From the NCBI GenBank assembly GCA_963809325.1, contig CAWEIZ010000002.1:452793-516792 (forward strand): a stretch of 64,000 bases of DNA, given 5' to 3'. This DNA comes from an uncultured Actinomycetes bacterium (lineage in GTDB: Bacteria; Actinomycetota; Thermoleophilia; Gaiellales; JAICJC01). The position numbers and the translations under genes were made by a program. Numbering within the stretch: position 1 is the first letter of the stretch; each line of letters begins with the position of its first letter. Shown in pieces: positions 1 to 28,592 of the stretch. The notes beneath the pieces are model-generated. The model worked only from the letters and a program-made list of their open reading frames with translations. It was not told where the DNA came from and did not search any database.

Positions 1-417
1 GACCGCCTCATGATCGAGATCACCGAGTCGGCGGCGATCGCCCGGCCGGGGAGCCTCGAGCCCATCATGGCCGACCTGCACGAGCGCGGCCTGCGGGTCG
101 CGATCGACGACTTCGGCACCGGCCACTCGTCGCTCGAGCGGCTCTCGCAGATGCGGGTGACGACGCTCAAGATCGACCGGTCGTTCATCGCCGCCGTCCC
201 CGACGACAGGCGCGTCTCGCTGCTCGTCGCCACGATCGTCCAGCTGGCCCTAAACCTCGGCCTCGAGCCGCTGGCCGAGGGCGTCGAGACGGAGTCGCAG
301 CGCCGCTTCCTCGTCGAGCACGGCTGCATGCTCGGCCAGGGCTTCTACTTCAGCCGCGCCGTGCCGGCGGAGCAGATCGCCGAGCTCCACGCTCGCACCG
401 TGCGCCGCGCCGCGTAA
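1..417 (+). CDS. EAL-domain c-di-GMP phosphodiesterase, C-terminal fragment (5' end outside window)
   Basis: The frame is open from position 1. The translation carries EAL C-terminal motifs ([31 protein letters not shown]). It is paralogous to the C-terminus of the 7301..9838 product. Confidence 0.85.
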   Translation, partial: DRLMIEITESAAIARPGSLEPIMADLHERGLRVAIDDFGTGHSSLERLSQMRVTTLKIDRSFIAAVPDDRRVSLLVATIVQLALNLGLEPLAEGVETESQRRFLVEHGCMLGQGFYFSRAVPAEQIAELHARTVRRAA

Positions 418-12566: not shown

Positions 12567-14326
12567 CAGGCGATGACGGCGTCGCGCTCGACGAGGGCGG
12601 CGTAGCGGCCGCCTCGAGCGACGAGCTCGGCGTGCGTCCCGCGCTCGGCGATCCGGCCGCGGTCGAGGACGAGGATCAGGTCGGCGTCGCGGATCGTGCT
12701 CAGCCGGTGGGCGATCACGATCGTCGTGCGGCCCTCGCTGAGCCGGTCGAGCGCGTCCTGCACCGCCCGCTCGGTCTCGACGTCGAGGGCGCTCGTCGCC
12801 TCGTCGAGGAGCAGCACCGGCGGGTCGCGGAGCACGGCCCGGGCGATCGCGAGCCGCTGCTTCTCGCCGCCCGAGAACCGGTAGCCGCGCTCGCCGACGA
12901 CCGTGTCGTAGCCCTCCGGAAGCGAGGCGAGATGGTCGTGGATGCGGGCTGCGCGGGCGGCCTGCTCGATCTCGTCGTCGGTCGCGTCGGGCCGCGCGAA
13001 GCGCAGGTTCTCGCGCACCGTCCCGTGAAAGAGGTAGGTCTCCTGCGAGACCACGCCGACCGTCTCGCGGAGCGAGGCGAACGAGAGGTCGCGCACGTCG
13101 ACGCCGTCGACCGTGACCGCGCCGGCGGTCGTGTCGTAGAGGCGGCCGACGAGGTAGCCGAGCGTCGTCTTGCCCGCGCCCGTCTCGCCGACGACCGCGA
13201 CCTTCGTGCCCGGATCGGCGACGAACGAGATGCCGTCGAGCGTCGGCGCCGCGTCGGGGTCGTAGCCGAAGCTGACGTCCCGGAACTCGACCTCGCCGCG
13301 CACCCTGGAGCGGTCGAGCGTGACCGGGTCGTCGCGCTCCTCGATGTCGACCGGGAGGTCGAGGTACTCGAAGACGCGGTCGAAGAGGGCCAGCGAGGTC
13401 TGGACGTCGACCTGCACGCCGAGCAGCGAGTTCACGGGGAAGAAGAGGCGCGTCTGAAGCGTGGTGAACGCGACCAGCGTGCCGATCGAGATCGCGGCGC
13501 TGCCCGACGCGAGCAGGTGGCCGGCGACGCCGTAGACGAGCGCCGGCATGACCGCGAACGTCGTCTGGATCGAGGCCATCATCCACCGGCCCGCCATGCG
13601 CGAGCGCATCTCGAGGTCGGCGAGCCGCGTGCTCTCCTGCGTGAACCGCCGCGTCAGGTCGCCGGTCTGGCCCATCGTCTTTGCGAGCAGGACGCCCGAG
13701 ACCGAGAGCGACTCCTCGACGAGCGCCGAGATGTCGGCCAGGGTGCCCTGCTTGGTGGTGGTCAGCTCCTTGCGCAGCCGGCCGATGCGGCGCGTCATGA
13801 GGACGAAGATCGGAAGGAGCCCGAACGCCGCGGCCGCGAGGCGCCAGTCCAGCAGGATCATGGCGGCGGCCGTGGCGATGACGGTGGTCACGTTGGAGAC
13901 GATCGACGTGGCGGTCGTCGTGACGACGCTCTGGACGCCGCCGATGTCGTTTGCGATCCGCGACTGCACCTCGCCGGTGCGGGTGCGGGTGAAGAAGGCG
14001 AGCGACAGCCGCTGGAGGTGCTCGTAGACGGCGGCGCGCAGGTCGTGCATCACGCGCTGGCCGACGAGGTTCGACTGCCACGTCTGCGCGACGCCGATCA
14101 CGCCGGTGATGATCGGGATCGCGACCATCCCGGCGACGAGCAGGTCGAGCCGGGTCGTGTCGACGTTCGAGCCCTGGGCCAGCACGTTGTTCAGGAGGTC
14201 GCGCAGCAGGAACGCGGGGATGACGCCGAGCCCGGCCGAGATCACGATGAGGCCGAGAAGGCCCATGAGCCGCTTCCGGTACGGCTTGAAGAGCCGGGCG
14301 ATCCGGCGTCCGGAACCCTCGCTCAC
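12566..14326 (-). CDS. ABC exporter, fused permease/ATPase (MsbA-like type I exporter)
   Basis: An N-terminal six-helix TMD is followed by an NBD with GETGAGKTT, FSGGEKQRLAIARA and LLLDEATSALD. The 586-aa ORF is intact. Confidence 0.9.
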   Translation of the reverse strand: MSEGSGRRIARLFKPYRKRLMGLLGLIVISAGLGVIPAFLLRDLLNNVLAQGSNVDTTRLDLLVAGMVAIPIITGVIGVAQTWQSNLVGQRVMHDLRAAVYEHLQRLSLAFFTRTRTGEVQSRIANDIGGVQSVVTTTATSIVSNVTTVIATAAAMILLDWRLAAAAFGLLPIFVLMTRRIGRLRKELTTTKQGTLADISALVEESLSVSGVLLAKTMGQTGDLTRRFTQESTRLADLEMRSRMAGRWMMASIQTTFAVMPALVYGVAGHLLASGSAAISIGTLVAFTTLQTRLFFPVNSLLGVQVDVQTSLALFDRVFEYLDLPVDIEERDDPVTLDRSRVRGEVEFRDVSFGYDPDAAPTLDGISFVADPGTKVAVVGETGAGKTTLGYLVGRLYDTTAGAVTVDGVDVRDLSFASLRETVGVVSQETYLFHGTVRENLRFARPDATDDEIEQAARAARIHDHLASLPEGYDTVVGERGYRFSGGEKQRLAIARAVLRDPPVLLLDEATSALDVETERAVQDALDRLSEGRTTIVIAHRLSTIRDADLILVLDRGRIAERGTHAELVARGGRYAALVERDAVIA

Positions 14327-14772
14327 CGGGCGGCCTCCAGGTTGGTCGCGCAGCGCTCGAGCAGGCCCGCGAGCTGGGTGCGCTCGTCGTCGCTGAAACC
14401 GGCGGTCATGCGCTTACCGACCTCGCGGCCGAGGTGGGGCGCCGCGGCGATCGCGACCTCGCCGGCGGGCGTCAGCTCGACACGGCGGCGGCGGCGATCG
14501 GCGGGGTGCGGCGAGCGCAGGATCCAGCCGCGCTCCTCGGCGGTGTCGACGAGCGCCGTCAGCGTGGGGGGCGCGACGCCGAAGCTGCAGCACAGCTCGC
14601 GCAGGTCGACGGCGCCGCCGGCGTGCCGGAGGCGGGCCAGGAGCTCCCACTGCTGCATGGTGAGGCCGTGCTCGCGCGCGATCCGATCGGCGGCCGCCTG
14701 GGCGAGCCGATCGACGCGGCGGACAGCCCGAAGCGCGGGCGGTCGCGGCGGCGATTGGGAGCGAGAACTCAT
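14323..14772 (-). CDS. MarR family transcriptional regulator
   Basis: 149-aa ORF with a winged-helix MarR core (LTMQQWELLARL...ADRRRRRVELTPAG). A 4-nt overlap with the ABC exporter start makes it the first gene of the operon. Confidence 0.9.
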   Translation of the reverse strand: MSSRSQSPPRPPALRAVRRVDRLAQAAADRIAREHGLTMQQWELLARLRHAGGAVDLRELCCSFGVAPPTLTALVDTAEERGWILRSPHPADRRRRRVELTPAGEVAIAAAPHLGREVGKRMTAGFSDDERTQLAGLLERCATNLEAAR

Positions 14773-14837
14773 TAGGCATCGAAATATTAGCAGGCGAAGA
14801 ATCGGGCAGAAGTTCGCAAATAGCGTGAAATTCGTGG

Positions 14838-14866
14838 TTGCACATGGGGCTCCGGTGCCGTACCTT
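14838..14866 (+). promoter_or_regulatory. sigma-70-like promoter of riboswitch module 1
   Basis: TTGCAC (14838-14843), a 17-nt spacer, then TACCTT (14861-14866, TANNNT). The same architecture and spacing occur at 25041-25069. The upstream box GAAGTTCGCAA-N3-GCGTGAAA is also conserved. Confidence 0.6.
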
Positions 14867-14868
14867 CA

Positions 14869-14985
14869 CCACTGCGCCGTCCAGGGCAGCCGAGTAGGTC
14901 GAAGCCGGACGGAGGAGCTGTAGGGGCGACTCGAAAGCTCTTTCGTGCGGGGGACGAAAGGTCAGCCGGGACGGCGAATCCTTTT
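14869..14985 (+). promoter_or_regulatory. ydaO-like (c-di-AMP class) riboswitch candidate, copy 1
   Basis: The closing helix is CGCCGUCC (14875-82) with GGACGGCG (14969-76). Collinear hallmarks are GCCGAGUA-GGUCGAAGCC-GGACGGAGGAGC, GGGGCGACUC-hairpin-GUGCGGGGGAC, GGUCAGC and GAAUCCUUUU. It is about 88 percent identical by eye to 25072..25189. Confidence 0.6.
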
Positions 14986-15026
14986 AAGGCAGGGGTTTCG
15001 CCATCGTCCGCGAAGGGCAGGGCGAT

Positions 15027-15179
15027 ATGACGGATCACCTGCTCCTCATCGCCGGCGCTCCCGTCATCGCTGTGGGCGCAATCCTCATCGTCGCGGCTCG
15101 CTTCGGTGCCAGCCGGCGCGCGGTCGTCGCCGAGCTCGAGCGGCTCGAGCAGGACGAGGCCGAGGACATCGCCGCGTAG
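15027..15179 (+). CDS. small membrane protein (50 aa) downstream of riboswitch candidate 1
   Basis: ATG 15027 follows GAAGGGCAGGG. The product is MTDHLLLIAGAPVIAVGAILIVAARFGASRRAVVAELERLEQDEAEDIAA, one TM helix plus an acidic tail. Codon third positions are strongly GC-biased. It is below the ORF-track size cutoff. Confidence 0.45.
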   Translation: MTDHLLLIAGAPVIAVGAILIVAARFGASRRAVVAELERLEQDEAEDIAA

Positions 15180-15183
15180 CGGC

Positions 15184-16311
15184 TCAGCCGCCGGAGAGCG
15201 CCTGGTCGAGGTCCGCGATCAGGTCGCCGGCGGCCTCGATCCCGACCGAGAGGCGGACGAGCGTCGCGGGCACGGCGAACGGTGAGTCCGCCGTCGAGGC
15301 GTGCGTCATCCGGCCGGGGTGCTCGATGAGGCTCTCGACGCCGCCCAGGCTCTCGGCGAGGGTCCAGATCCGGGTACGCGCGACGAGCGCCACCGCCTCC
15401 TCCTCGGACGCCGCCAGGAACGAGACCATCCCGCCGAAGCCGTCCATCTGACGGGCGGCGATGTCGTGCCCGGGGTGGCCCGGGAGCCCAGGGTAGAGCA
15501 CGCGCTCGACCGCCGAGTGGCCGAGGAGGAACTCGACCACCTGCTCGGCGTTCGCGCAGTGGGCGCGCATCCGGACGGCGAGCGTCTTCAGCCCGCGGAG
15601 CGCGAGCCAGGCGTCGAACGGCCCGGGGACGGCGCCGAGCGAGTTCTGGAGGAACCGCAGCCGCTCGGCGATGGCGGCGTCGGACGTGGCGGCGACCCCG
15701 CCGATCAGATCGGAGTGGCCGCCGAGGTACTTCGTCGTCGAGTGGACGACGATGTCGGCGCCGTGCTCCAGCGGCCGCTGCAGGAACGGGGAGGCGAACG
15801 TGTTGTCGACGACGACGATCGCGCCCGCGGCGTGGGCCGCGGCGGACGCCGCGCGCAGGTCGACGATGTTCAGCAGCGGGTTCGTCGGCGTCTCGAGCCA
15901 CAGCATCGAGGCGCCCTCCAGCTTCGCGCCGAGGCCGGCGTTGCACTCGTCCGCGGTCACGTAGGTGAAGCGGTAGCCCTTGGGCTCGTAGACCTTCGAG
16001 AAGAGCCGATACGTGCCGCCGTAGACGTCGTTCACCGCCACGACATGCGCGCCCGGCTCGAGCAGGTGCATGACGGTCGTGGTCGCCGCCATGCCCGACC
16101 CGAACGCGATCCCGTGCTCGGCTCCCTCGAGTGAGGCGAGGCACGTCTCGAACGCCTCGCGCGTGGGATTGGCCGTGCGCGAGTAGTCGTAGCGGAACTC
16201 GCCGACCGCCCGCTGGGCGTAGGTCGAGGTCGCGTAGATCGGCACCGTCACCGCGCCGGTGTGCGGATCCGGGTCCTGGCCGGCGTGGATGGCGCGGGTC
16301 TCGAACTCCAC
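15184..16311 (-). CDS. cystathionine gamma-lyase/gamma-synthase family PLP enzyme
   Basis: Cys/Met-metabolism PLP family motifs: YSRTANPTREAFE, GSGMAA, and STTKYLGGHSD with the PLP lysine. The 375-aa ORF is intact. Confidence 0.9.
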   Translation of the reverse strand: MEFETRAIHAGQDPDPHTGAVTVPIYATSTYAQRAVGEFRYDYSRTANPTREAFETCLASLEGAEHGIAFGSGMAATTTVMHLLEPGAHVVAVNDVYGGTYRLFSKVYEPKGYRFTYVTADECNAGLGAKLEGASMLWLETPTNPLLNIVDLRAASAAAHAAGAIVVVDNTFASPFLQRPLEHGADIVVHSTTKYLGGHSDLIGGVAATSDAAIAERLRFLQNSLGAVPGPFDAWLALRGLKTLAVRMRAHCANAEQVVEFLLGHSAVERVLYPGLPGHPGHDIAARQMDGFGGMVSFLAASEEEAVALVARTRIWTLAESLGGVESLIEHPGRMTHASTADSPFAVPATLVRLSVGIEAAGDLIADLDQALSGG

Positions 16312-16322
16312 CGCGGCCGAGT

Positions 16323-17453
16323 CTAGCGGGCCGGTTCGAGGGCGAGCTGGCGGGCGAGGCGCGAGAAGGCGCGCTCGAGCGCCTCGTCGCGGGCCGCCGA
16401 TCGCCGGCGCGACTCGGGGTGCCAGGCGAGCAGCCGTAGGACGCCGGCCTTGCGGTCGGCCTTGACGTCGGCGCGGCCCGCCACCCGGTCTCCGACGACG
16501 AGCGGCAGCACGTAGTAGCCGTACCGCCGCTCGGGCGCCGGCTTGTAGACCTCGATCAGGTGCCGGAACCCGAGCACGCGCTCGGCGAACGGCCGGTCCC
16601 AGAGCAGGTTGTCGAACGGCGAGAGGAGGACGGCACCGGCCGGCTTCGCAGCCTCAACCTCGGCGCCCGCCTCGATCAGCACCGGCGGCCCGCCGTCGTC
16701 GACGGCTTCGCGACGGAGCGCTCCGGCCGCCACGAGCGCGTCGATGTACGGCTTCACCGCCGCCACCCCGCCCCGCAGGCGCCAGTGCTCGACCACCCCG
16801 GCGTCGGTCAGCGCGCCGCGGGCCGCCACGGCCCGCAGCACGAGCGCCTGCATCATCTCGACCTCCCCCGGAACCGGCGCACCGAGCACCTCGTCCGGGA
16901 TCACCCGCTCGGGCAGGTCGTACATCCGCTGGAACCCGTCTCGCGCGCCGATGACGAGCCGGCCCGCCGACCACAGCGCCTCGAGCATCTGCTTGGCGGG
17001 CTTCAGGCTCCACATCCCGCCCGCGGAGCGGGCGCCCTCGAAGTGGCGCGACCCGAGCGGGCCGCGCTCGCGGATCTCGCCCATGATGCGGTCGGCGAGC
17101 GCGGGGTCGCGGTCGATGAGGTCGCCCCACCACGGATGATCGGGGCGGGAGAGCATCCTGCTTCGTGCGAGCGGCCAGTCCTCGATCGGGAGCAGGCACG
17201 CCTCGTGCGCCCAGTACTCGAAGACGCGTCCGGCCGCGAGGAGCCCCGAGACGGTGCGGGGCGGGTAGCGGCCCACGCGCGAGAGCAGCGTCAGGCGGTG
17301 TGAGCGGTCGACGGTCGAGATCGAGTCGAGCTGCACGGCCGACAGGCGCCGGATGGCGTCGGCCACATCGTCCCCACCGGCTGTCCGGTACCGGGTCGCA
17401 TACCTCTGAGCCGCCACGACATGCCGGCGAAGCGCCGCGAGTGTGAGGCTCAA
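16323..17453 (-). CDS. winged-helix DUF1006 / YcaQ (AlkZ-like crosslink-repair glycosylase) family protein
   Basis: Family-typical blocks AVQLDSISTVDRSH, FEYWAHEACLLP, SPFDNLLWDR and YKPAPERRYGYYVLP. ATGA overlap with the CBS stop. Confidence 0.8.
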   Translation of the reverse strand: MSLTLAALRRHVVAAQRYATRYRTAGGDDVADAIRRLSAVQLDSISTVDRSHRLTLLSRVGRYPPRTVSGLLAAGRVFEYWAHEACLLPIEDWPLARSRMLSRPDHPWWGDLIDRDPALADRIMGEIRERGPLGSRHFEGARSAGGMWSLKPAKQMLEALWSAGRLVIGARDGFQRMYDLPERVIPDEVLGAPVPGEVEMMQALVLRAVAARGALTDAGVVEHWRLRGGVAAVKPYIDALVAAGALRREAVDDGGPPVLIEAGAEVEAAKPAGAVLLSPFDNLLWDRPFAERVLGFRHLIEVYKPAPERRYGYYVLPLVVGDRVAGRADVKADRKAGVLRLLAWHPESRRRSAARDEALERAFSRLARQLALEPAR

Positions 17454-23608: not shown

Positions 23609-24165
23609 CCGCGGCGGACGAGCTCGGGCAGGATCTCGCGCAGCGCGTCGACCGTCGGCGTGCGGTCGCGGATCCCGGTGTGGTGCGAGGGCCAGCCGTC
23701 GTGGAAGTCGACGATCGCGCCGTCGTGGACGCCGTCGAGCACGCGCCGCACGATCCGGTCGACCTTCCGCTCGCGCCAGTCGATCGGGTCGACGTCCCAC
23801 AGGATGCACGCGAGGCCCAGGCCGGCGCCGACCACGCCCACCCGCTCGGCGTCCTCGCCGTACGGCGGCCGGACGAGCCGCGGGGCGATCCCGGAGGCGT
23901 CGGTGATGACCTGCTGCGCGCGGGCCAGCTCCTCGCGCAGCGCGCTCTCCTCGAGGCGGCCGCAGTGCGGGTGCGAGTACGTGTGGTTTCCGAGCTCGTG
24001 GCCGGCGGCGACCATGCGCCGCAGGAGCGGCTCCTGGCCGGGGATCTTGTCCCCGAGGACGAAGAACGTCCCGGCCCCTCCGTGCTCGGCGATCAGATCG
24101 GCGATCGCCTCGGTGTGCGGGGACGGGCCGTCGTCGAAGGTGAGCGCTAGTCGGGCTCGGGCCAC
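23542..24165 (-). CDS. polysaccharide deacetylase (NodB homology domain)
   Basis: LALTFDDGP, GTFFVLG, GHELGNHTYSH and VRPPYG. GTG 24165 is preferred and ATG 24201 is the alternative. The 3' end overlaps the convergent deacetylase by 67 nt. Confidence 0.8.
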   Translation of the reverse strand: MARARLALTFDDGPSPHTEAIADLIAEHGGAGTFFVLGDKIPGQEPLLRRMVAAGHELGNHTYSHPHCGRLEESALREELARAQQVITDASGIAPRLVRPPYGEDAERVGVVGAGLGLACILWDVDPIDWRERKVDRIVRRVLDGVHDGAIVDFHDGWPSHHTGIRDRTPTVDALREILPELVRRGYEAVTVSAMSAQPATQTPSSS

Positions 24166-24980
24166 CGGTAGCTGAAGTAGAACTGCCGCCACGCCGTCCA
24201 CCAGTCGTCGGCGCGCGAGGCGATGGTGCGGCCGTCGATGATCTCGACCAGCGGGTGGTGGCGGAACTGCTCGGAGTGGTCAGGTGTCGCGAGCTCGACC
24301 CGGACCTCGCACGGCTTGCCCGGGTCGTACGGCGGCACGGCCTTCAGGTCGGCGAGCGCGGCCCGGGCTCCCTCCTCGATCATCCGGCGCGCCTCGGCCG
24401 GCGTCTTGTGCCGGCCGCTGAACCGCCCGAGGGCGGTCTTCACCTGGACGGTGGTGAGCCCGTCGCCGAGCAGCTCGCGCCCCTCGCGGCACGCCGCCTG
24501 GTCGCCGGTTACGAGCAGCACCGGGCACCCCCAGGTGCCGCACAGCGCCGCGTTGATGCCGGTCTCGCCGACCTCGGTGCCGTTGAACCGCACGCTGCGC
24601 CACTCGGTCCCCGAGACGGTGTGCGTCATGAACCCGTCGCTCGTCCCGGCCATGGCGTGCATCCCGATGAAGAGCGCGCCGTCGCACCCATCCTCGAGGA
24701 CGCCGGTGTACTCGGTCCACTCCTTCTGGACCACGAACTCGCACCCCTCGTCGAGGTCCTCGGGGATGAGCGAGTTGAACGACCAGCCCTTCCCGGCCCC
24801 ATGGCAGTCCATGACGACGACCTCGGTCGCGCCGCCCGCCCGCGCACCGCGGACGGCTGCGTTGATCTCCTGGGTGTAGAGCTTGCGCCCCTCCTCGTAG
24901 AGGGACTCACCGCCGGCGACCTGCTGCCAGTTCGAGATGCCGGCGACGCCCTCCATGTCGCTCACGATGAAGACGCGCAT
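24147..24980 (-). CDS. M55 family D-aminopeptidase (DppA-like)
   Basis: The MRVFIVSDMEGVAGI N-terminus is typical of M55. The 277-aa ORF is intact. Confidence 0.85.
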   Translation of the reverse strand: MRVFIVSDMEGVAGISNWQQVAGGESLYEEGRKLYTQEINAAVRGARAGGATEVVVMDCHGAGKGWSFNSLIPEDLDEGCEFVVQKEWTEYTGVLEDGCDGALFIGMHAMAGTSDGFMTHTVSGTEWRSVRFNGTEVGETGINAALCGTWGCPVLLVTGDQAACREGRELLGDGLTTVQVKTALGRFSGRHKTPAEARRMIEEGARAALADLKAVPPYDPGKPCEVRVELATPDHSEQFRHHPLVEIIDGRTIASRADDWWTAWRQFYFSYRWPEPD

Positions 24981-25040
24981 GCGGCGGCCACTCTACCGGC
25001 CGCCCGGCCCGGAAGGTCGCAACGTGCGTGAAAAACCCGG

Positions 25041-25069
25041 TTGCAGACCGTGGACGCGTCCCGTAGCTT
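25041..25069 (+). promoter_or_regulatory. sigma-70-like promoter of riboswitch module 2
   Basis: TTGCAG (25041-46), a 17-nt spacer, then TAGCTT (25064-69). The upstream box GAAGGTCGCAA-N3-GCGTGAAA has the same spacing as copy 1. Confidence 0.6.
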
Positions 25070-25071
25070 GA

Positions 25072-25189
25072 CCACTGCGCCGTCCAGGGCAGCCGAGTAG
25101 GTCGAAGCCGGGCGGAGGAGCGGGTAGAGGTGACTCGAACGCTCTTTCGCCCGGGGGACGAAAGGCCAGCCGGGACGGCGAATCCTTTT
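25072..25189 (+). promoter_or_regulatory. ydaO-like (c-di-AMP class) riboswitch candidate, copy 2
   Basis: Same closing helix and hallmark blocks as 14869..14985. The substitutions cluster in linker and hairpin positions. One is compensatory: A14909:U14962 becomes G25112:C25166. Confidence 0.6.
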
Positions 25190-25211
25190 CTCGAGCGGTA
25201 GGCTTGCGGCG

Positions 25212-25316
25212 ATGGGGCCGAGCGGCATCACACCGTGGGGCGAGTCGCCGAAGGGTCTTCGCGGCTGGCTCCGCTTCCTGCTGCGGCTGATCGCGCCGCG
25301 CCCGCCGCGGCACTGA
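25212..25316 (+). CDS. possible 34-codon sORF downstream of riboswitch candidate 2
   Basis: ATG 25212 to TGA 25316 gives MGPSGITPWGESPKGLRGWLRFLLRLIAPRPPRH. The RBS is weak and there is no similarity to the copy-1 sORF. It could be non-coding. Confidence 0.2.
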   Translation: MGPSGITPWGESPKGLRGWLRFLLRLIAPRPPRH

Positions 25317-25319
25317 TCG

Positions 25320-25741
25320 TCAGCTCAGCTGGACCGAGCCGTCGTCGCGGAGCGTCCAGTGCGGGTTGTGGGCGACCTCCCACGGATGCCCGTCGGGGTC
25401 GGCGAACACACCGGAGTAGCCGCCCCAGAAGGTCTCGGCCCCGCCCCGCAGCACGGTGCCGCCGGCGGCCCGGGCCTCCTCCAGGACGGCGTCGACCTCC
25501 GCGGGCGAGCGGGTGTTGTACGCCAGCGTCACGCCGCCCCAGCCGCCGCCGTCGGCAACGACCGAGTCCTCAGCGAGCTGCGCGCGGCCCCACAGCGCGA
25601 GGATCGTCCCTCCCGCCTGGAAGAACACGACGTCGTCGGCGGGCGCCGCGCCCGTCGTCCACCCGAGCCCCTCGTAGAACGCCCGCGCCCGCGCCCAGAT
25701 CCGAGACGCCCAGGCGTGACGAGGCTGACCCGCTGCTCCAC
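25320..25741 (-). pseudogene. VOC (glyoxalase/bleomycin-resistance) family protein, two frameshifts near the 5' end
   Basis: The body reads ARARAFYEGLGW...FADPDGHPWEVAHNP in one frame. The expected N-terminal strand is split over three frames (MEQRVSLVT / LGVSDL / ARARAFY), with an extra C near 25713-14 and an extra G near 25694-96. Confidence 0.65.
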
Positions 25742-25750
25742 GCTGCCATC

Positions 25751-26851
25751 CTAGCCAGTGCCGAGGATCTCGGACGCGAGCCACTGCCCCTGCTCGTTCA
25801 GGCGGCCGTGCGACACGAGCCCGAACTTGGAGACGCAGTCCAGGTTCCAGCGCGCCCAGCTGATGCCGTGCCGGCGCATGATGCCCTCCACCTGCTCGTT
25901 GTAGACGTGGTTTCGCACGTCGTCGTTTCGCGCGCCCCACTCGCCGACGATCATCGGGATCCCATGCAAGTGCGTGCTCCGCCACGGGATGGCGAGGTTC
26001 AGCCACTGGTTGCGAGCGGTGCCGTGGTAGCGGGTGCTGAGCTGGTTGTGCGTCTCCGACCAGTTCGGAACCCAGTTGTCGTCGGCAGCGTCGAGGCCCG
26101 ATCCGCAACAGCCGTTGTAGAAGTCGTGCCAGTCGAGCGCCGTATGGGCGAGCCGGAATCCGGCGCACCCGAAGCACGCCCGGGCGCCGAGGGCCCCGCC
26201 GCGGACGTTGAAGAAGACGGTCGTATAGGGGTCGATGGCGAGGATCGCATCGCGGATGCCCGCCTGCCATTCCAGCATGTCGCGGTCGACCCGCGGCGAT
26301 CCGACGTGATCCCAGACGAACGGTCGCGGCTCGTTGAAGATGCCGAAGCCGATGACGCGCGGGTTGCCGGCGTACCGGTGCACGAGCGCGCGCACGAAGA
26401 CGAGATACGCGCCGCGGGGCGCCGGCGCGCGGCGCACGTGGAAGCCGTGCCGGTTGACCCACCCCGGAAGCTCCTCGCCGCGCAGGTCGAGCACGACGTT
26501 CACGCGATGTGCGGTCAGGTATGCGATGAAGGCGTCGAGGCGCTCCAGCTCACGCGCATCGAGGTGTCCGCGGCGGGGCTCGATGTCGGCCCAGAGGACG
26601 CGGACCCGGGCGAAGTTCGCATGCAGCTCGATCACCTTCTCCACGAGCCGCGATTGGTAGCTGACGTCGACCCCGCGGAGGATCACGATCCTGCCGGCCC
26701 GGTCGACGAAGTGGATGCCGCTCGTGGTCACCGCCGGCCGCACCGGCCGCGCGGCCCTCGCGGGTGGCGAAAGGAGGAGAGGGACGAACGCCGCGAGCGC
26801 GAGGCTCGCGAAGGACCGGCTCAAACGACAGGTCCGCGACCCGGTCTGCAC
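25751..26851 (-). CDS. glycoside hydrolase family 5 (secreted)
   Basis: N-terminal signal peptide, an IFNEP acid/base motif and a GEWG nucleophile motif. The 366-aa ORF is intact. Confidence 0.85.
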   Translation of the reverse strand: MQTGSRTCRLSRSFASLALAAFVPLLLSPPARAARPVRPAVTTSGIHFVDRAGRIVILRGVDVSYQSRLVEKVIELHANFARVRVLWADIEPRRGHLDARELERLDAFIAYLTAHRVNVVLDLRGEELPGWVNRHGFHVRRAPAPRGAYLVFVRALVHRYAGNPRVIGFGIFNEPRPFVWDHVGSPRVDRDMLEWQAGIRDAILAIDPYTTVFFNVRGGALGARACFGCAGFRLAHTALDWHDFYNGCCGSGLDAADDNWVPNWSETHNQLSTRYHGTARNQWLNLAIPWRSTHLHGIPMIVGEWGARNDDVRNHVYNEQVEGIMRRHGISWARWNLDCVSKFGLVSHGRLNEQGQWLASEILGTG

Positions 26852-26966: not shown

Positions 26967-27557
26967 ATGCCTGAGACCATCCGCATCCCCGCTCGCGAGG
27001 GCCACGCCCTGCGCATGTCCGCCGGCGACCGCATCCGCGTCATCGACCCCGAGGGCGGCCAGGTTGCCGACGTGTTCGCCTTCTGTGCCGACGACCTGTC
27101 GGAGTACCACTCGGCCGAGCACACGCGCGTGTACGTGAGCCGGCTCTTCCCGCGCGTCGGCGAGCAGTTCGTGACGAACCGGCGCCGCCCGATCCTGACG
27201 CTCGAGGCCGACACGTCGCCCGGCATCCACGACATGCTCTGCGCGGCCTGCGACCCGAGCCGCTACGCCGGCCTCGGCGTCGAGGGCTGGCACGCCTCCT
27301 GCCAGGAGAACCTCCAGAAGGCGATGGCCGCGCTCGGCTACGAGGGCATCGAGATCCCCCAGCCGATCAACGTCTTCATGAACATCCCTGTGCGCGACGA
27401 CTGGGAGCTTGGGTGGGAGCCGGCGCCGACGAAGCCCGGCGACTCGGTCACGCTGCGCGCGGAGCGCGACATCGTCTTCGCGGTCTCGGCCTGCCCGCAG
27501 GACCTCGTCAGCATCAACGCCGGCAGCCCCGGCCCGATCGACCTCGAGCTCCAGTAA
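26967..27557 (+). CDS. DUF1989 family protein (urea-carboxylase-associated / carboxyguanidine-deiminase-like)
   Basis: ATG 26967 is in frame within track ORF 26715..27557. Blocks GGQVADVFAF, HSAEHTR, TNRRRPILT, IHDMLCAACD and INVFMN match my memory of DUF1989. Confidence 0.75.
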   Translation: MPETIRIPAREGHALRMSAGDRIRVIDPEGGQVADVFAFCADDLSEYHSAEHTRVYVSRLFPRVGEQFVTNRRRPILTLEADTSPGIHDMLCAACDPSRYAGLGVEGWHASCQENLQKAMAALGYEGIEIPQPINVFMNIPVRDDWELGWEPAPTKPGDSVTLRAERDIVFAVSACPQDLVSINAGSPGPIDLELQ

Positions 27558-27616
27558 CCACCGGGGCCAGGCCCCATCGCCCGCAGGCGATGGGGCCCGA
27601 CCCCACGGGGTTGGTC
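27556..27616. repeat. REP-like palindromic element, copy C
   Basis: AACCACCGGGGCCAGGCCCC-[ATCGCCCGCAGGCGAT]-GGGGCCCGACCCCACGGGGTTGGTC. It fills the whole gap between the convergent stops at 27555-57 and 27615-17 and overlaps both. Confidence 0.85.
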
Positions 27617-28592
27617 AGCGGTGAGCGTCGGCGTAGGCGGCCAGCGTGTCGGCGATCACCTGGCACGCGGCCATGGCGGACTCGCCGTTGTCGTACGCCG
27701 GGGCGACCTCGCAGACGTCCATCGCCACGATGTTCGCGCGGCCGATCACCGAGACCATCGTGAGCGCCTCGCGCGAGGTGAGCCCGCCCATCGTCGGGAC
27801 GCAGGTTCCGGTGCAGACGGAGCTGTCGAGGCTGTCGACGTCGAAGCTGAAGTAGACGCCGTCGGTGCCGTCGGACGCGATCTGGACCGCCTCCTCGGCG
27901 ATCGCCCGTGCACCGCGGCGGTCGACGTCGGAGACGTGGAAGACGGTCACGCCCGCCTCGCGCACGTAGGCGTACTCGCTCTTCGGGTTCATCGCCCCGT
28001 GCGGGCCGATGATGACGCACTTGGCAGGGTCGAACGCCGCGAGCTCCATCGCCCGCGTGATCGGGCAGCAGTGGTTGATCCGCTCGCCGCCGACGTCGGG
28101 CGCCGTGTCGAGGTGCGTGTCGACCAGGATCAGCCCGTACGTCCCCTCCGGCGCGTGCCGGTCGACGGCCATCGAGCCGCCGATCGTCGTGATGTGCTCG
28201 CCCCCGCACAGGACGGGGATCGCGCCCGCCTTGATCGCCTCGCCCATCGCGTCGGCGACGAGGTCGACGGTCTTGGCAGCGTTGGCCGGGACGACGGCGA
28301 CGTCGCCCATGTCGGCGACGCCGAGCGCCTCGAAGATGTCGAGGTCGTACTCGCCGTGGTAGGAGAGCATGTGGCTCGACCAGTCCCGCACCGCCCGGGG
28401 GCCGAGCTGGGCCCCCGGACGGGCGATCGTGGTCGAGTCGAACGGCATGCCAAGGAAGGCTGCCTTGACGCCCGCCGCCCGCAGGGCATCGGCGTCGGCC
28501 TCCACCTGGGGGGCGCCCATGAACGTGGCGATCCCGCCCACGAGCACGGAGTGCCACCCCTGGCGGGTCTGTTGCGAAGCGACGGAGCTCAT
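27615..28592 (-). CDS. arginase/agmatinase (ureohydrolase) family protein, divergent signature
   Basis: The ureohydrolase fold reads GGEHIT, LVDTHLD and SFDVDSLD. The six predicted Mn-ligand positions are retained but flanking residues are atypical. Confidence 0.8.
   Translation of the reverse strand: MSSVASQQTRQGWHSVLVGGIATFMGAPQVEADADALRAAGVKAAFLGMPFDSTTIARPGAQLGPRAVRDWSSHMLSYHGEYDLDIFEALGVADMGDVAVVPANAAKTVDLVADAMGEAIKAGAIPVLCGGEHITTIGGSMAVDRHAPEGTYGLILVDTHLDTAPDVGGERINHCCPITRAMELAAFDPAKCVIIGPHGAMNPKSEYAYVREAGVTVFHVSDVDRRGARAIAEEAVQIASDGTDGVYFSFDVDSLDSSVCTGTCVPTMGGLTSREALTMVSVIGRANIVAMDVCEVAPAYDNGESAMAACQVIADTLAAYADAHR

Follow-up and report, generated by a model that had tools for sequence, protein, structure and literature searches.

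The locus and its RNA element

We analysed a 64,000-nt stretch of DNA from an uncultured bacterium of the order Gaiellales (GenBank assembly GCA_963809325.1, contig CAWEIZ010000002.1, positions 452,793 to 516,792), here called the window, and in it a structured RNA element of about 112 nt on the plus strand (copy 1; Table 1). Upstream of the element lies a divergent MarR-family gene with an ABC exporter beyond it; downstream, a short open reading frame (ORF), sORF1, is followed by a convergent gene for a pyridoxal phosphate (PLP) enzyme of Cys/Met metabolism, of the cystathionine gamma-lyase (CGL) type (Pfam PF01053). A first-pass annotation, made from the sequence alone, had described the element as a promoter with a candidate ydaO-yuaA (cyclic di-AMP) riboswitch, which would either control the tiny membrane peptide encoded by sORF1 or, by read-through, make a ligand-gated antisense RNA across the convergent operon. 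Our analysis instead places copy 1 in a multi-copy family of structured RNAs, a second member of which (copy 2) lies in the same window.

Much of the earlier local description held. The claimed promoter, TTGCAC-N17-TACCTT, is present by sequence reading, as is the 8-bp closing helix (CGCCGUCC with GGACGGCG), whose 3′ strand runs into a U-rich tail, AAUCCUUUU. The unit also points head-on at the 3′ end of the CGL gene, as had been stated. Between the helices of copy 1 (P1, the closing helix, to P7) lie the internal loops GAGUAG/GAAA, GAAG/GG and GUA/GAA, and the apex is a GNRA loop, GCGA (14927–14930). Relative to dinucleotide shuffles, the plus strand of 14865–15030 folds with z = −3.4 (−75.7 kcal/mol) and the minus strand with z = −2.7.

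Table 1 Features at the two RNA loci of the window, and helices of the RNA in alignment columns
Feature	Position	Strand	Remarks
MarR-family gene	14323–14772	−	divergent from copy 1
TAATAT, candidate −10 box	14784–14789	−	11 nt upstream of the MarR ATG
Copy 1 operator-like palindrome, CGCAAATAGCG	14815–14825	+	consensus CGCAAAnTGCG / CCGCAAATTGCGG; centre about −54 from the putative start
Copy 1 promoter	14838–14866	+	−35 TTGCAC 14838–14843; 17-nt spacer; −10 TACCTT 14861–14866
RNA copy 1	14874–14985	+	about 112 nt; putative +1 at the invariant G 14874; covariance model 134.5 bits
Copy 1 closing helix	14875–14882 × 14969–14976	+	8 bp
sORF1 leader	14990–15026	+	hairpin UUUCGC-N8-GCGAAG
sORF1	15027–15179	+	50-amino-acid (aa) protein, single transmembrane (TM) segment, acidic tail; called as a gene in public assemblies
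Palindrome CTCGAG-CGG-CTCGAG	15134–15150		inside sORF1; 7-bp hairpin, 34 nt from the CGL stop
CGL-type gene	stop at 15184		convergent to copy 1; PF01053
AlkZ-like DNA glycosylase gene	16323–17453	−	PF06224
Peptidase_M55 gene	24147–24980		divergent from copy 2
Copy 2 operator, CGCAACGTGCG	25018–25028	+	BLAST alignment and palindrome search
Copy 2 promoter	25041–25069	+	−35 TTGCAG 25041–25046; 17-nt spacer; −10 TAGCTT 25064–25069
RNA copy 2	25077–25189	+	about 113 nt; paralogue of copy 1; covariance model 134.7 bits; BLAST
TAGGCT, −10 box of sORF2	25199–25204		7 nt before the ATG
sORF2	25212–25316	+	34 aa (MGPSGITPWGESPKGLRGWLRFLLRLIAPRPPRH); conserved in nine genomes
Glyoxalase and GH5 genes	25320–26851	−	between copy 2 and DUF1989
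DUF1989 gene	26967–27557
Arginase-family gene	27615–28592	−	beside the DUF1989 gene
P1	columns 8–15 × 103–110
P2	columns 18–20 × 99–101
P3	columns 22–24 × 94–96		then internal loop GAGUAG / GAAA
P4	columns 31–33 × 87–89		then internal loop GAAG / GG
P5–P6	columns 38–53 × 70–84		then internal loop GUA / GAA
P7	columns 57–59 × 64–66		capped by a GNRA tetraloop

Distribution of the RNA family

A BLAST comparison of 14809–15026 with the window returned a second match at 25012–25189, on the same strand and 84% identical, in which the similarity starts upstream of the −35 hexamer and ends exactly at TTTT. Copy 2 differs from copy 1 by compensatory changes and carries a GUGA tetraloop. A pattern scan with GAGTAGGTCGAAG-N28–58-GGACGAAAGG, using one genome per species, yielded 78 loci, 77 of which come from metagenome-assembled genomes labelled Gaiellales, Gaiellaceae, Thermoleophilia, Actinomycetota, Actinobacteria or 'uncultured Actinomycetes'.

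The first-pass annotation had proposed conservation in related genomes as a check on the element. A covariance model (R1) built from 90 distinct sequences found exactly two copies in the window and, elsewhere, 102 copies in 77 of the 78 pattern loci at 97–142 bits, with strong covariation; seven of these copies have no pattern match. The model did not recover the pattern match in Chthoniobacter (L041), a false positive. Counted by accession prefix, the 102 copies are spread over 51 assemblies with one to four detected in each, figures that are minimum values, since the pattern limited the sample. Copies stand at orthologous positions across species, and about 20 loci hold tandem pairs 200–260 nt apart, with one triplet. 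As far as sampled, the family appears to be confined to the Gaiellales.

A second sample, from metagenomes, used as its anchor nothing but the promoter and the six bases that open P1. The RNA follows in all 41 matches that have enough downstream sequence, and both loop anchors are exact in 23 of the 26 distinct bodies; the three divergent bodies keep AGUAGG and GGAC(G/A)AA and add new compensatory pairs. Because this promoter-anchored sample gives the same loops, their conservation is real rather than circular.

A conserved unbranched fold

For the alignment of the 90 distinct sequences, RNAalifold, used as an independent prediction, returned the same unbranched rod as the fold derived by hand (Table 1). 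Standard pairs fill 94.2% of cells, against 32–44% when the partners are slid by 1–3 columns, and double-sided changes occur in 20 of the 35 pairs. The covariation score of 0.315 compares with 0.115 in shuffles and was reached by none of 500 of them. Counted from an invariant G in column 7, P1 ends after a constant 104 nt, bar a single-nucleotide indel. Sequences of the Gaiellaceae subclass replace CCGUCC/GGACGG in P1 by CCGAGC/GCUCGG, and GRG-GYGA-CUC at the apex by CCC-GCAA-GGG.

G-U pairs are very frequent (74 of 90 sequences at columns 45–77 and 48 of 90 at columns 47–75), and the transcribed strand is therefore the promoter strand, plus at copy 1, as had been described. The opposite reading, a minus-strand leader of the MarR operon, is ruled out by these G-U pairs and by the conservation of the promoter orientation at loci that have no MarR gene.

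Strand-specific pairing of this kind also bears on whether the family is a DNA repeat, akin to miniature inverted-repeat transposable elements (MITEs) or repetitive extragenic palindromic (REP) sequences, in which case the hairpin would simply reflect the symmetry of the inverted repeats and have no function as RNA. The element is indeed multi-copy, intergenic, found in tandem and able to form a long imperfect hairpin. We nevertheless hold this explanation to be very improbable, given the G-U pairs, the double-sided compensatory changes, internal loops that are asymmetric and conserved, and a GNRA apex. Genomes carry only one to four detected copies, at orthologous positions, the promoter and operator are conserved outside the hairpin, and the alignments showed neither terminal repeats nor target duplications.

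The proposed identity as a ydaO-yuaA riboswitch, or as a member of any other known riboswitch class, was compared with the Rfam 15 covariance models at gathering scores and at permissive E thresholds. No Rfam family, ydaO included, reached its gathering score anywhere in the window; within 14700–15250, E ≤ 10 returned no riboswitch family and only chance snoRNA and miRNA fragments; the SAM and SAH riboswitch models gave no match; and six diverged family members had no Rfam match at E ≤ 0.05. What spoke for the assignment was only a resemblance of short purine-rich strings and a site downstream of an actinobacterial promoter. The ydaO architecture is multi-helix and pseudo-two-fold with a pseudoknot; here, the fold supported by covariation is an unbranched hairpin and the covariance model has 0 branch points. 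Elements of the ydaO class lie upstream of cell-wall hydrolase, osmoprotectant or osmolyte, or K+ transport genes, and the first-pass annotation had itself remarked that the local genes do not fit them. That remark extends to the other copies, whose neighbours (sORFs, DUF1989, NUDIX, an OmpR-type regulator, sigma-70 and convergent genes) are not of the ydaO-regulon type. At the level of sequence and structure models the ydaO identity is refuted, and the chance that a known riboswitch class lies here appears negligible.

Promoter and 3′ end

We compared 94 distinct upstream regions anchored on P1. The consensus consists of TTGCA, a 17-nt spacer and TAGCTT, TACCTT or TAGATT, followed 7 nt later by the invariant G directly before P1. 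Across about 100 copies the hexamers and their spacing are conserved and the spacer sequence is hypervariable; near-identical metagenomic relatives of the copy 1 locus repeat this contrast, with RNA body and hexamers almost invariant and the spacer hypervariable. Judged by these alignments, the RNA is conserved together with a promoter of its own, in the manner of a stand-alone small-RNA gene, and the invariant G (14874 and 25077 in the window) is the putative +1. A simple sigma-70 consensus scan did not call the copy 1 promoter; such scans miss the locus because they are too strict for TTGCAC/TACCTT and for a terminator hairpin of 100 nt.

Further upstream, the palindrome CGCAAAnTGCG stands at −58 from P1 in 62 of the 94 promoters. 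In another 15, mostly of the Gaiellaceae subclass, it lies 10 nt further upstream (−66 to −68), a shift of one helical turn, and reads CCGCAAATTGCGG. We take it as a putative site for a dimeric transcription factor. Each member of a tandem pair retains the full promoter and operator. In the window, the palindrome search matched at the two RNA copies only, a count not above chance, so that neither a regulon nor a transcription factor can be deduced from it. At copy 1 the palindrome is flanked by the RNA promoter on one side and the divergent MarR gene on the other. The TAATAT sequence upstream of MarR is a candidate −10 box; if it is one, the shared palindrome would lie near −43 for the MarR promoter and near −54 for that of the RNA.

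At the other end of the rod, the 8 nt after P1 hold a mean of 4.9 T where 1.2 are expected, and at least four T in 101 of 102 copies. The exception (L021) has no U-tail and is directly followed by a canonical terminator, GGGCCTCC-TCCG-GGAGGCCC-TTTCATTTT. In many copies an extra GC-rich hairpin lies just 3′ of the tail. Some relatives of the copy 1 locus carry an additional gene, encoding either a 212-aa protein or a 176-aa AAA_33 kinase-like protein, exactly between the U-tail and the sORF1 leader.

Several further features gather around this boundary. The junction between U-tail and sORF1 leader is an insertion hot spot (L007/L016, L013, L014 and L005). In 58 of about 98 copies, spread over deep subclasses (for example L030, L081 and L036), the U-rich tail is directly followed by a conserved GGUCC, which has the sequence of the 5′ strand of P4. 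A near-perfect hairpin (for example GCAACATTGGGGTCTGACCCCGATGTTGC) separates the tail of copy-2-type RNAs from sORF2 in L023, L033, L042, L054, L057 and L088, and is absent from the window.

Gene neighbourhoods and small proteins

Gene contexts of the 94 copies were established from crude gene calls based on third-codon-position GC content (GC3), clustering, Pfam and direct reading of the flanks; N-terminal motif expressions proved too strict for spacer lengths, which were therefore read directly from the flanks. Several locus types emerged. Type A, to which copy 1 belongs, consists of a divergent MarR gene, the RNA, sORF1 41 nt on and the convergent CGL gene. In type B (copy 2), a divergent Peptidase_M55 gene, the RNA and sORF2 are followed in most genomes by DUF1989; the tandem variant has two RNAs and a DUF1989 gene that starts 13–30 nt past the tail with no visible promoter or Shine–Dalgarno (SD) sequence. 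Type C comprises a membrane protein, an optional RNA-a, a NUDIX gene (start 12–14 nt past the tail), RNA-b, a hairpin and an OmpR-type regulator, whose ATG is preceded by 8–10 nt by a conserved TACAAT, TAGAAT or TAGCCT box that appears to be a leaderless promoter. In type D (Gaiellaceae), a 75-aa membrane protein is encoded divergently and a group-1 sigma-70 gene follows the RNA at about 100 nt. Orphan copies face a convergent gene that ends 11–55 nt past the tail. These neighbours are functionally unrelated, and neither Pfam nor clustering revealed a common theme or hinted at a ligand.

Some details concern individual neighbourhoods. The AlkZ-like gene lies between the CGL gene and a CBS-domain cystathionine beta-synthase-like gene, so that the 'CBS/CGL operon' of the first-pass annotation has an unrelated middle gene, an arrangement kept in relatives. 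In the window, glyoxalase and GH5 genes are inserted between copy 2 and DUF1989, and an arginase-family gene stands beside the latter. Between the RNA and the group-1 sigma-70 gene of Gaiellaceae (for example L045, L050, L036 and L048) lies a conserved TTGACATAACACCSGTTACCGTGCA / CTTGACATAACACCSGTTACCGTGCA; CTTGACATAACACCSGTTACCGTGCA is probably the sigma-70 gene's own promoter or operator (TTGACA region).

The 50-codon single-TM ORF noted in the first-pass annotation proved to be a real conserved gene. Its frame and length are kept in 11 species-level genomes, the core AARFG(A/S)SRRA(V/I)(V/I)AE is invariant, and the TM segment varies by conservative hydrophobic replacements; it has no Pfam match. 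The leader holds an SD-like GAAGGG and no −10 box. Because the 41-nt gap after the RNA is too short for a promoter of its own and contains no −10 box, sORF1 is most likely transcribed by read-through of the tail from the RNA promoter. The leader hairpin, with a conserved stem and a variable loop, overlaps the SD-like sequence. The palindrome inside sORF1, which accounts for chance miRNA-like Rfam matches, could serve as a terminator, either of the convergent CGL transcript or of read-through on the plus strand.

The smaller sORF2 is conserved with synonymous changes outnumbering nonsynonymous ones across its nine genomes. Relatives keep TAnnnT 6–8 nt before the ATG, and the sORF2 mRNA is probably leaderless, given its own −10 box 7 nt ahead of the ATG.

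The type A layout bears on the idea that the main role of copy 1 is antisense control of the CBS/AlkZ-like/CGL operon through sORF1 read-through, which would be compatible with a small-RNA gene. Only 4 nt separate the sORF1 stop from the CGL stop, no terminator was found between them, and the order RNA, sORF1, convergent CGL is conserved in about ten species-level genomes. Some overlap of the convergent transcripts is plausible from this layout. All other locus types, however, are without any convergent operon, relatives that insert the 176- or 212-aa gene between RNA and sORF1 retain both, and the strong hairpin within sORF1 could stop transcription in either direction. An antisense main role is thus improbable. 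Since the family is multi-copy and other copies lie beside unrelated genes or none, both roles proposed in the first-pass annotation, the riboswitch for a membrane peptide and the ligand-gated antisense RNA, could be no more than a side effect, and that at one locus type out of three or more.

A broader alternative is that the family acts in cis as a new attenuator, be it a riboswitch or a leader that depends on a protein, in which P1 and the U-tail form a conditional terminator and the whole cassette was duplicated in front of several genes. A ligand or protein at the internal loops would then decide on read-through into sORF1, DUF1989, NUDIX or the regulators. The next gene is co-oriented in 70 of the 94 copies, and by a rough tally about one third of copies have an ORF without its own promoter 12–50 nt past the tail, as seen for sORF1, DUF1989 and NUDIX. 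The highly conserved purine-rich internal loops and the constant length are as in aptamers, and heterogeneous regulons are typical of second-messenger riboswitches. Columns 40–45 moreover have the same sequence as the 3′ strand of P1 and might pair with columns 10–15 in an alternative helix, which is 77% paired; column 42 pairs with column 13 in 70 of 90 sequences, and with its rod partner, column 80, in 24 of 90. This helix, though, has no excess of double-sided changes, and past P1 there is no conserved expression platform.

An attenuator would account for the closely abutting ORFs and for the alternative helix, if it forms, but not for the many autonomous copies or for the promoter that is conserved with them. 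According to the same rough tally, the majority of copies have no dependent downstream gene and yet are equally conserved, with all locus types, including convergent-neighbour copies and first tandem members, scoring 97–142 bits. A convergent gene of at least 70 aa comes next in 24 of the 94 copies; about ten of these are type A loci, where the intervening sORF1 is too short for the gene caller, and at least six copies abut a convergent gene 11–55 nt past the tail with no called ORF between. Copies before response-regulator and sORF2 genes, which appear to have −10 boxes (leaderless promoters) of their own, score 110–140 bits, and the sigma-70 gene of type D, with its conserved TTGACA region, is likewise probably not dependent on the RNA upstream. 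Add to this that a promoter and operator conserved at a fixed distance are unusual for riboswitches and that no theme of gene function points to a ligand, and an attenuator becomes a doubtful explanation, although one that deserves a serious hearing.

Discussion

Together, these results lead us to read the element, with moderate confidence, as a self-contained, independently transcribed small-RNA gene, one of two in the window. We favour this reading because conservation runs from a fixed start to a U-rich tail, because tandem members each keep promoter and operator while insertions respect the 3′ boundary, and because the neighbours are unrelated and copies without a dependent gene are maintained. 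We suggest that a sigma-70-type promoter (TTGCA-N17-TAsCTT), with a palindromic transcription-factor site near −54, would start transcription at the invariant G before P1. The transcript would fold into the constant-length 104-nt rod, and the GC-rich P1 with the U-rich tail could act as an intrinsic-type terminator. The resulting discrete RNA of about 112 nt would act on its own, most likely bound by a protein through its purine-rich internal loops. We prefer protein binding because the RNA offers no pyrimidine-rich seed for anti-SD pairing and its unpaired conserved bases form purine-rich loops at fixed spacing. Termination appears to be incomplete, so that ORFs abutting the tail would be co-transcribed and share the control of the RNA, such as sORF1 here and DUF1989 and NUDIX elsewhere.

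Several points weigh against a small-RNA gene. The start site, the 3′ end and the discrete transcript itself are deduced from sequence. The U-tract begins 2–5 nt past P1 and is broken by C and G, unlike a textbook terminator, and a simple terminator scan did not call P1 and the U-tail at copy 1. Where sORF1, NUDIX or, behind tandem copies, DUF1989 follows, the RNA is in physical terms the 5′ leader of that gene, and the possible helix between columns 10–15 and 40–45 hints, weakly, at switching. The genome sample was ascertained by a pattern inside the RNA, so that the breadth of the family and the invariance of its loops are partly biased, which the promoter-anchored sample mitigates. Protein binding as the mode of action is weakly indicated by the loops.

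As a tentative and rather unlikely extension, we also entertain that the family is a sensor RNA of a new class. Its purine-rich loops would bind a small molecule or a dedicated protein, and the RNA would serve both as a free regulator and, through P1 and the U-tail, as a gate for adjacent genes, the whole forming an order-wide module of the Gaiellales under a palindrome-binding factor.

Gaiellales are abundant and almost uncultured soil actinobacteria, and our literature search found no regulatory RNAs described for them; searches on RNAs of Gaiellales and Thermoleophilia, on DUF1989 riboswitches and on the core sequences found no description of this RNA among the papers covered. With about 100 sequences, clean covariation, a defined promoter and operator and one to four detected copies per genome, the family is ready for Rfam-style curation and for experiments. 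Should the RNA prove to bind a protein or a metabolite, it would constitute a new class of regulatory RNA in a lineage in which Hfq and CsrA are probably absent. At the locus itself, a riboswitch call that looked plausible but was wrong is corrected, and two small conserved proteins, of 50 and 34 aa, are validated.

Comparison with known systems

With the ydaO-yuaA class (RF00379) the Gaiellales RNA shares a position just after an actinobacterial promoter, purine-rich conserved segments and a closing helix. It differs in having no model match, in its unbranched rod, in the promoter and operator that are conserved along with it, and in flanking genes that are unrelated or absent instead of serving the cell wall, osmolytes or K+. 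In Clostridium acetobutylicum, an S-box riboswitch reportedly controls an antisense RNA over the ubiG-mccBA (Met-to-Cys) operon. That system likewise has a promoter and structured RNA convergent to reverse-transsulfuration genes. The Gaiellales RNA differs in that it matches no SAM or SAH model, the convergent layout is one of at least three locus types, and the protein-coding sORF1 stands between RNA and CGL.

The multi-copy, transcription-factor-controlled small RNAs Qrr1–5, PrrF1/2, RsmX/Y/Z, LhrC1–5 and AbcR1/2 are similar in genetic organization. Like the Gaiellales RNA, they occur in genomes as sets of paralogues, tandem pairs among them, in which each copy has its own promoter and the same upstream regulator site (putative here). 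The conserved block is bounded by start site and terminator, both of them putative in the Gaiellales RNA, and is independent of the neighbouring genes. Those RNAs expose single-stranded seeds or GGA motifs, whereas the Gaiellales RNA is almost fully paired. They work with Hfq or CsrA/RsmA; to our knowledge, actinobacteria generally lack both.

Similar in shape are the rod-like, protein-binding 6S RNA, mycobacterial Ms1, Y RNA (YrlA) and the 4.5S RNA of the signal recognition particle (SRP), with which it shares paired ends, a constant length and an elongated hairpin that has conserved internal loops. A GNRA apex is common to the Gaiellales RNA and 4.5S RNA, and multiple or tandem copies are common to the Gaiellales RNA and YrlA. 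It has no Rfam match to any of these RNAs, however, and is without the large central bubble of 6S and Ms1, the tRNA-like domain or rsr neighbour of Y RNA, and the domain-IV loop sequences of SRP RNA. The GAGUAG/GAAA and GUA/GAA loops (AGUA/GAA consensus) may resemble sarcin–ricin, loop-E or S-turn motifs, and possible likenesses to the apex of SRP RNA and to the GGUCCGA motif of Y RNA were considered as well; none of these has Rfam support. With no Rfam match and no published description found, we place this well-supported RNA motif as a new, uncatalogued family within the kind of promoter-driven, structured bacterial small RNAs.

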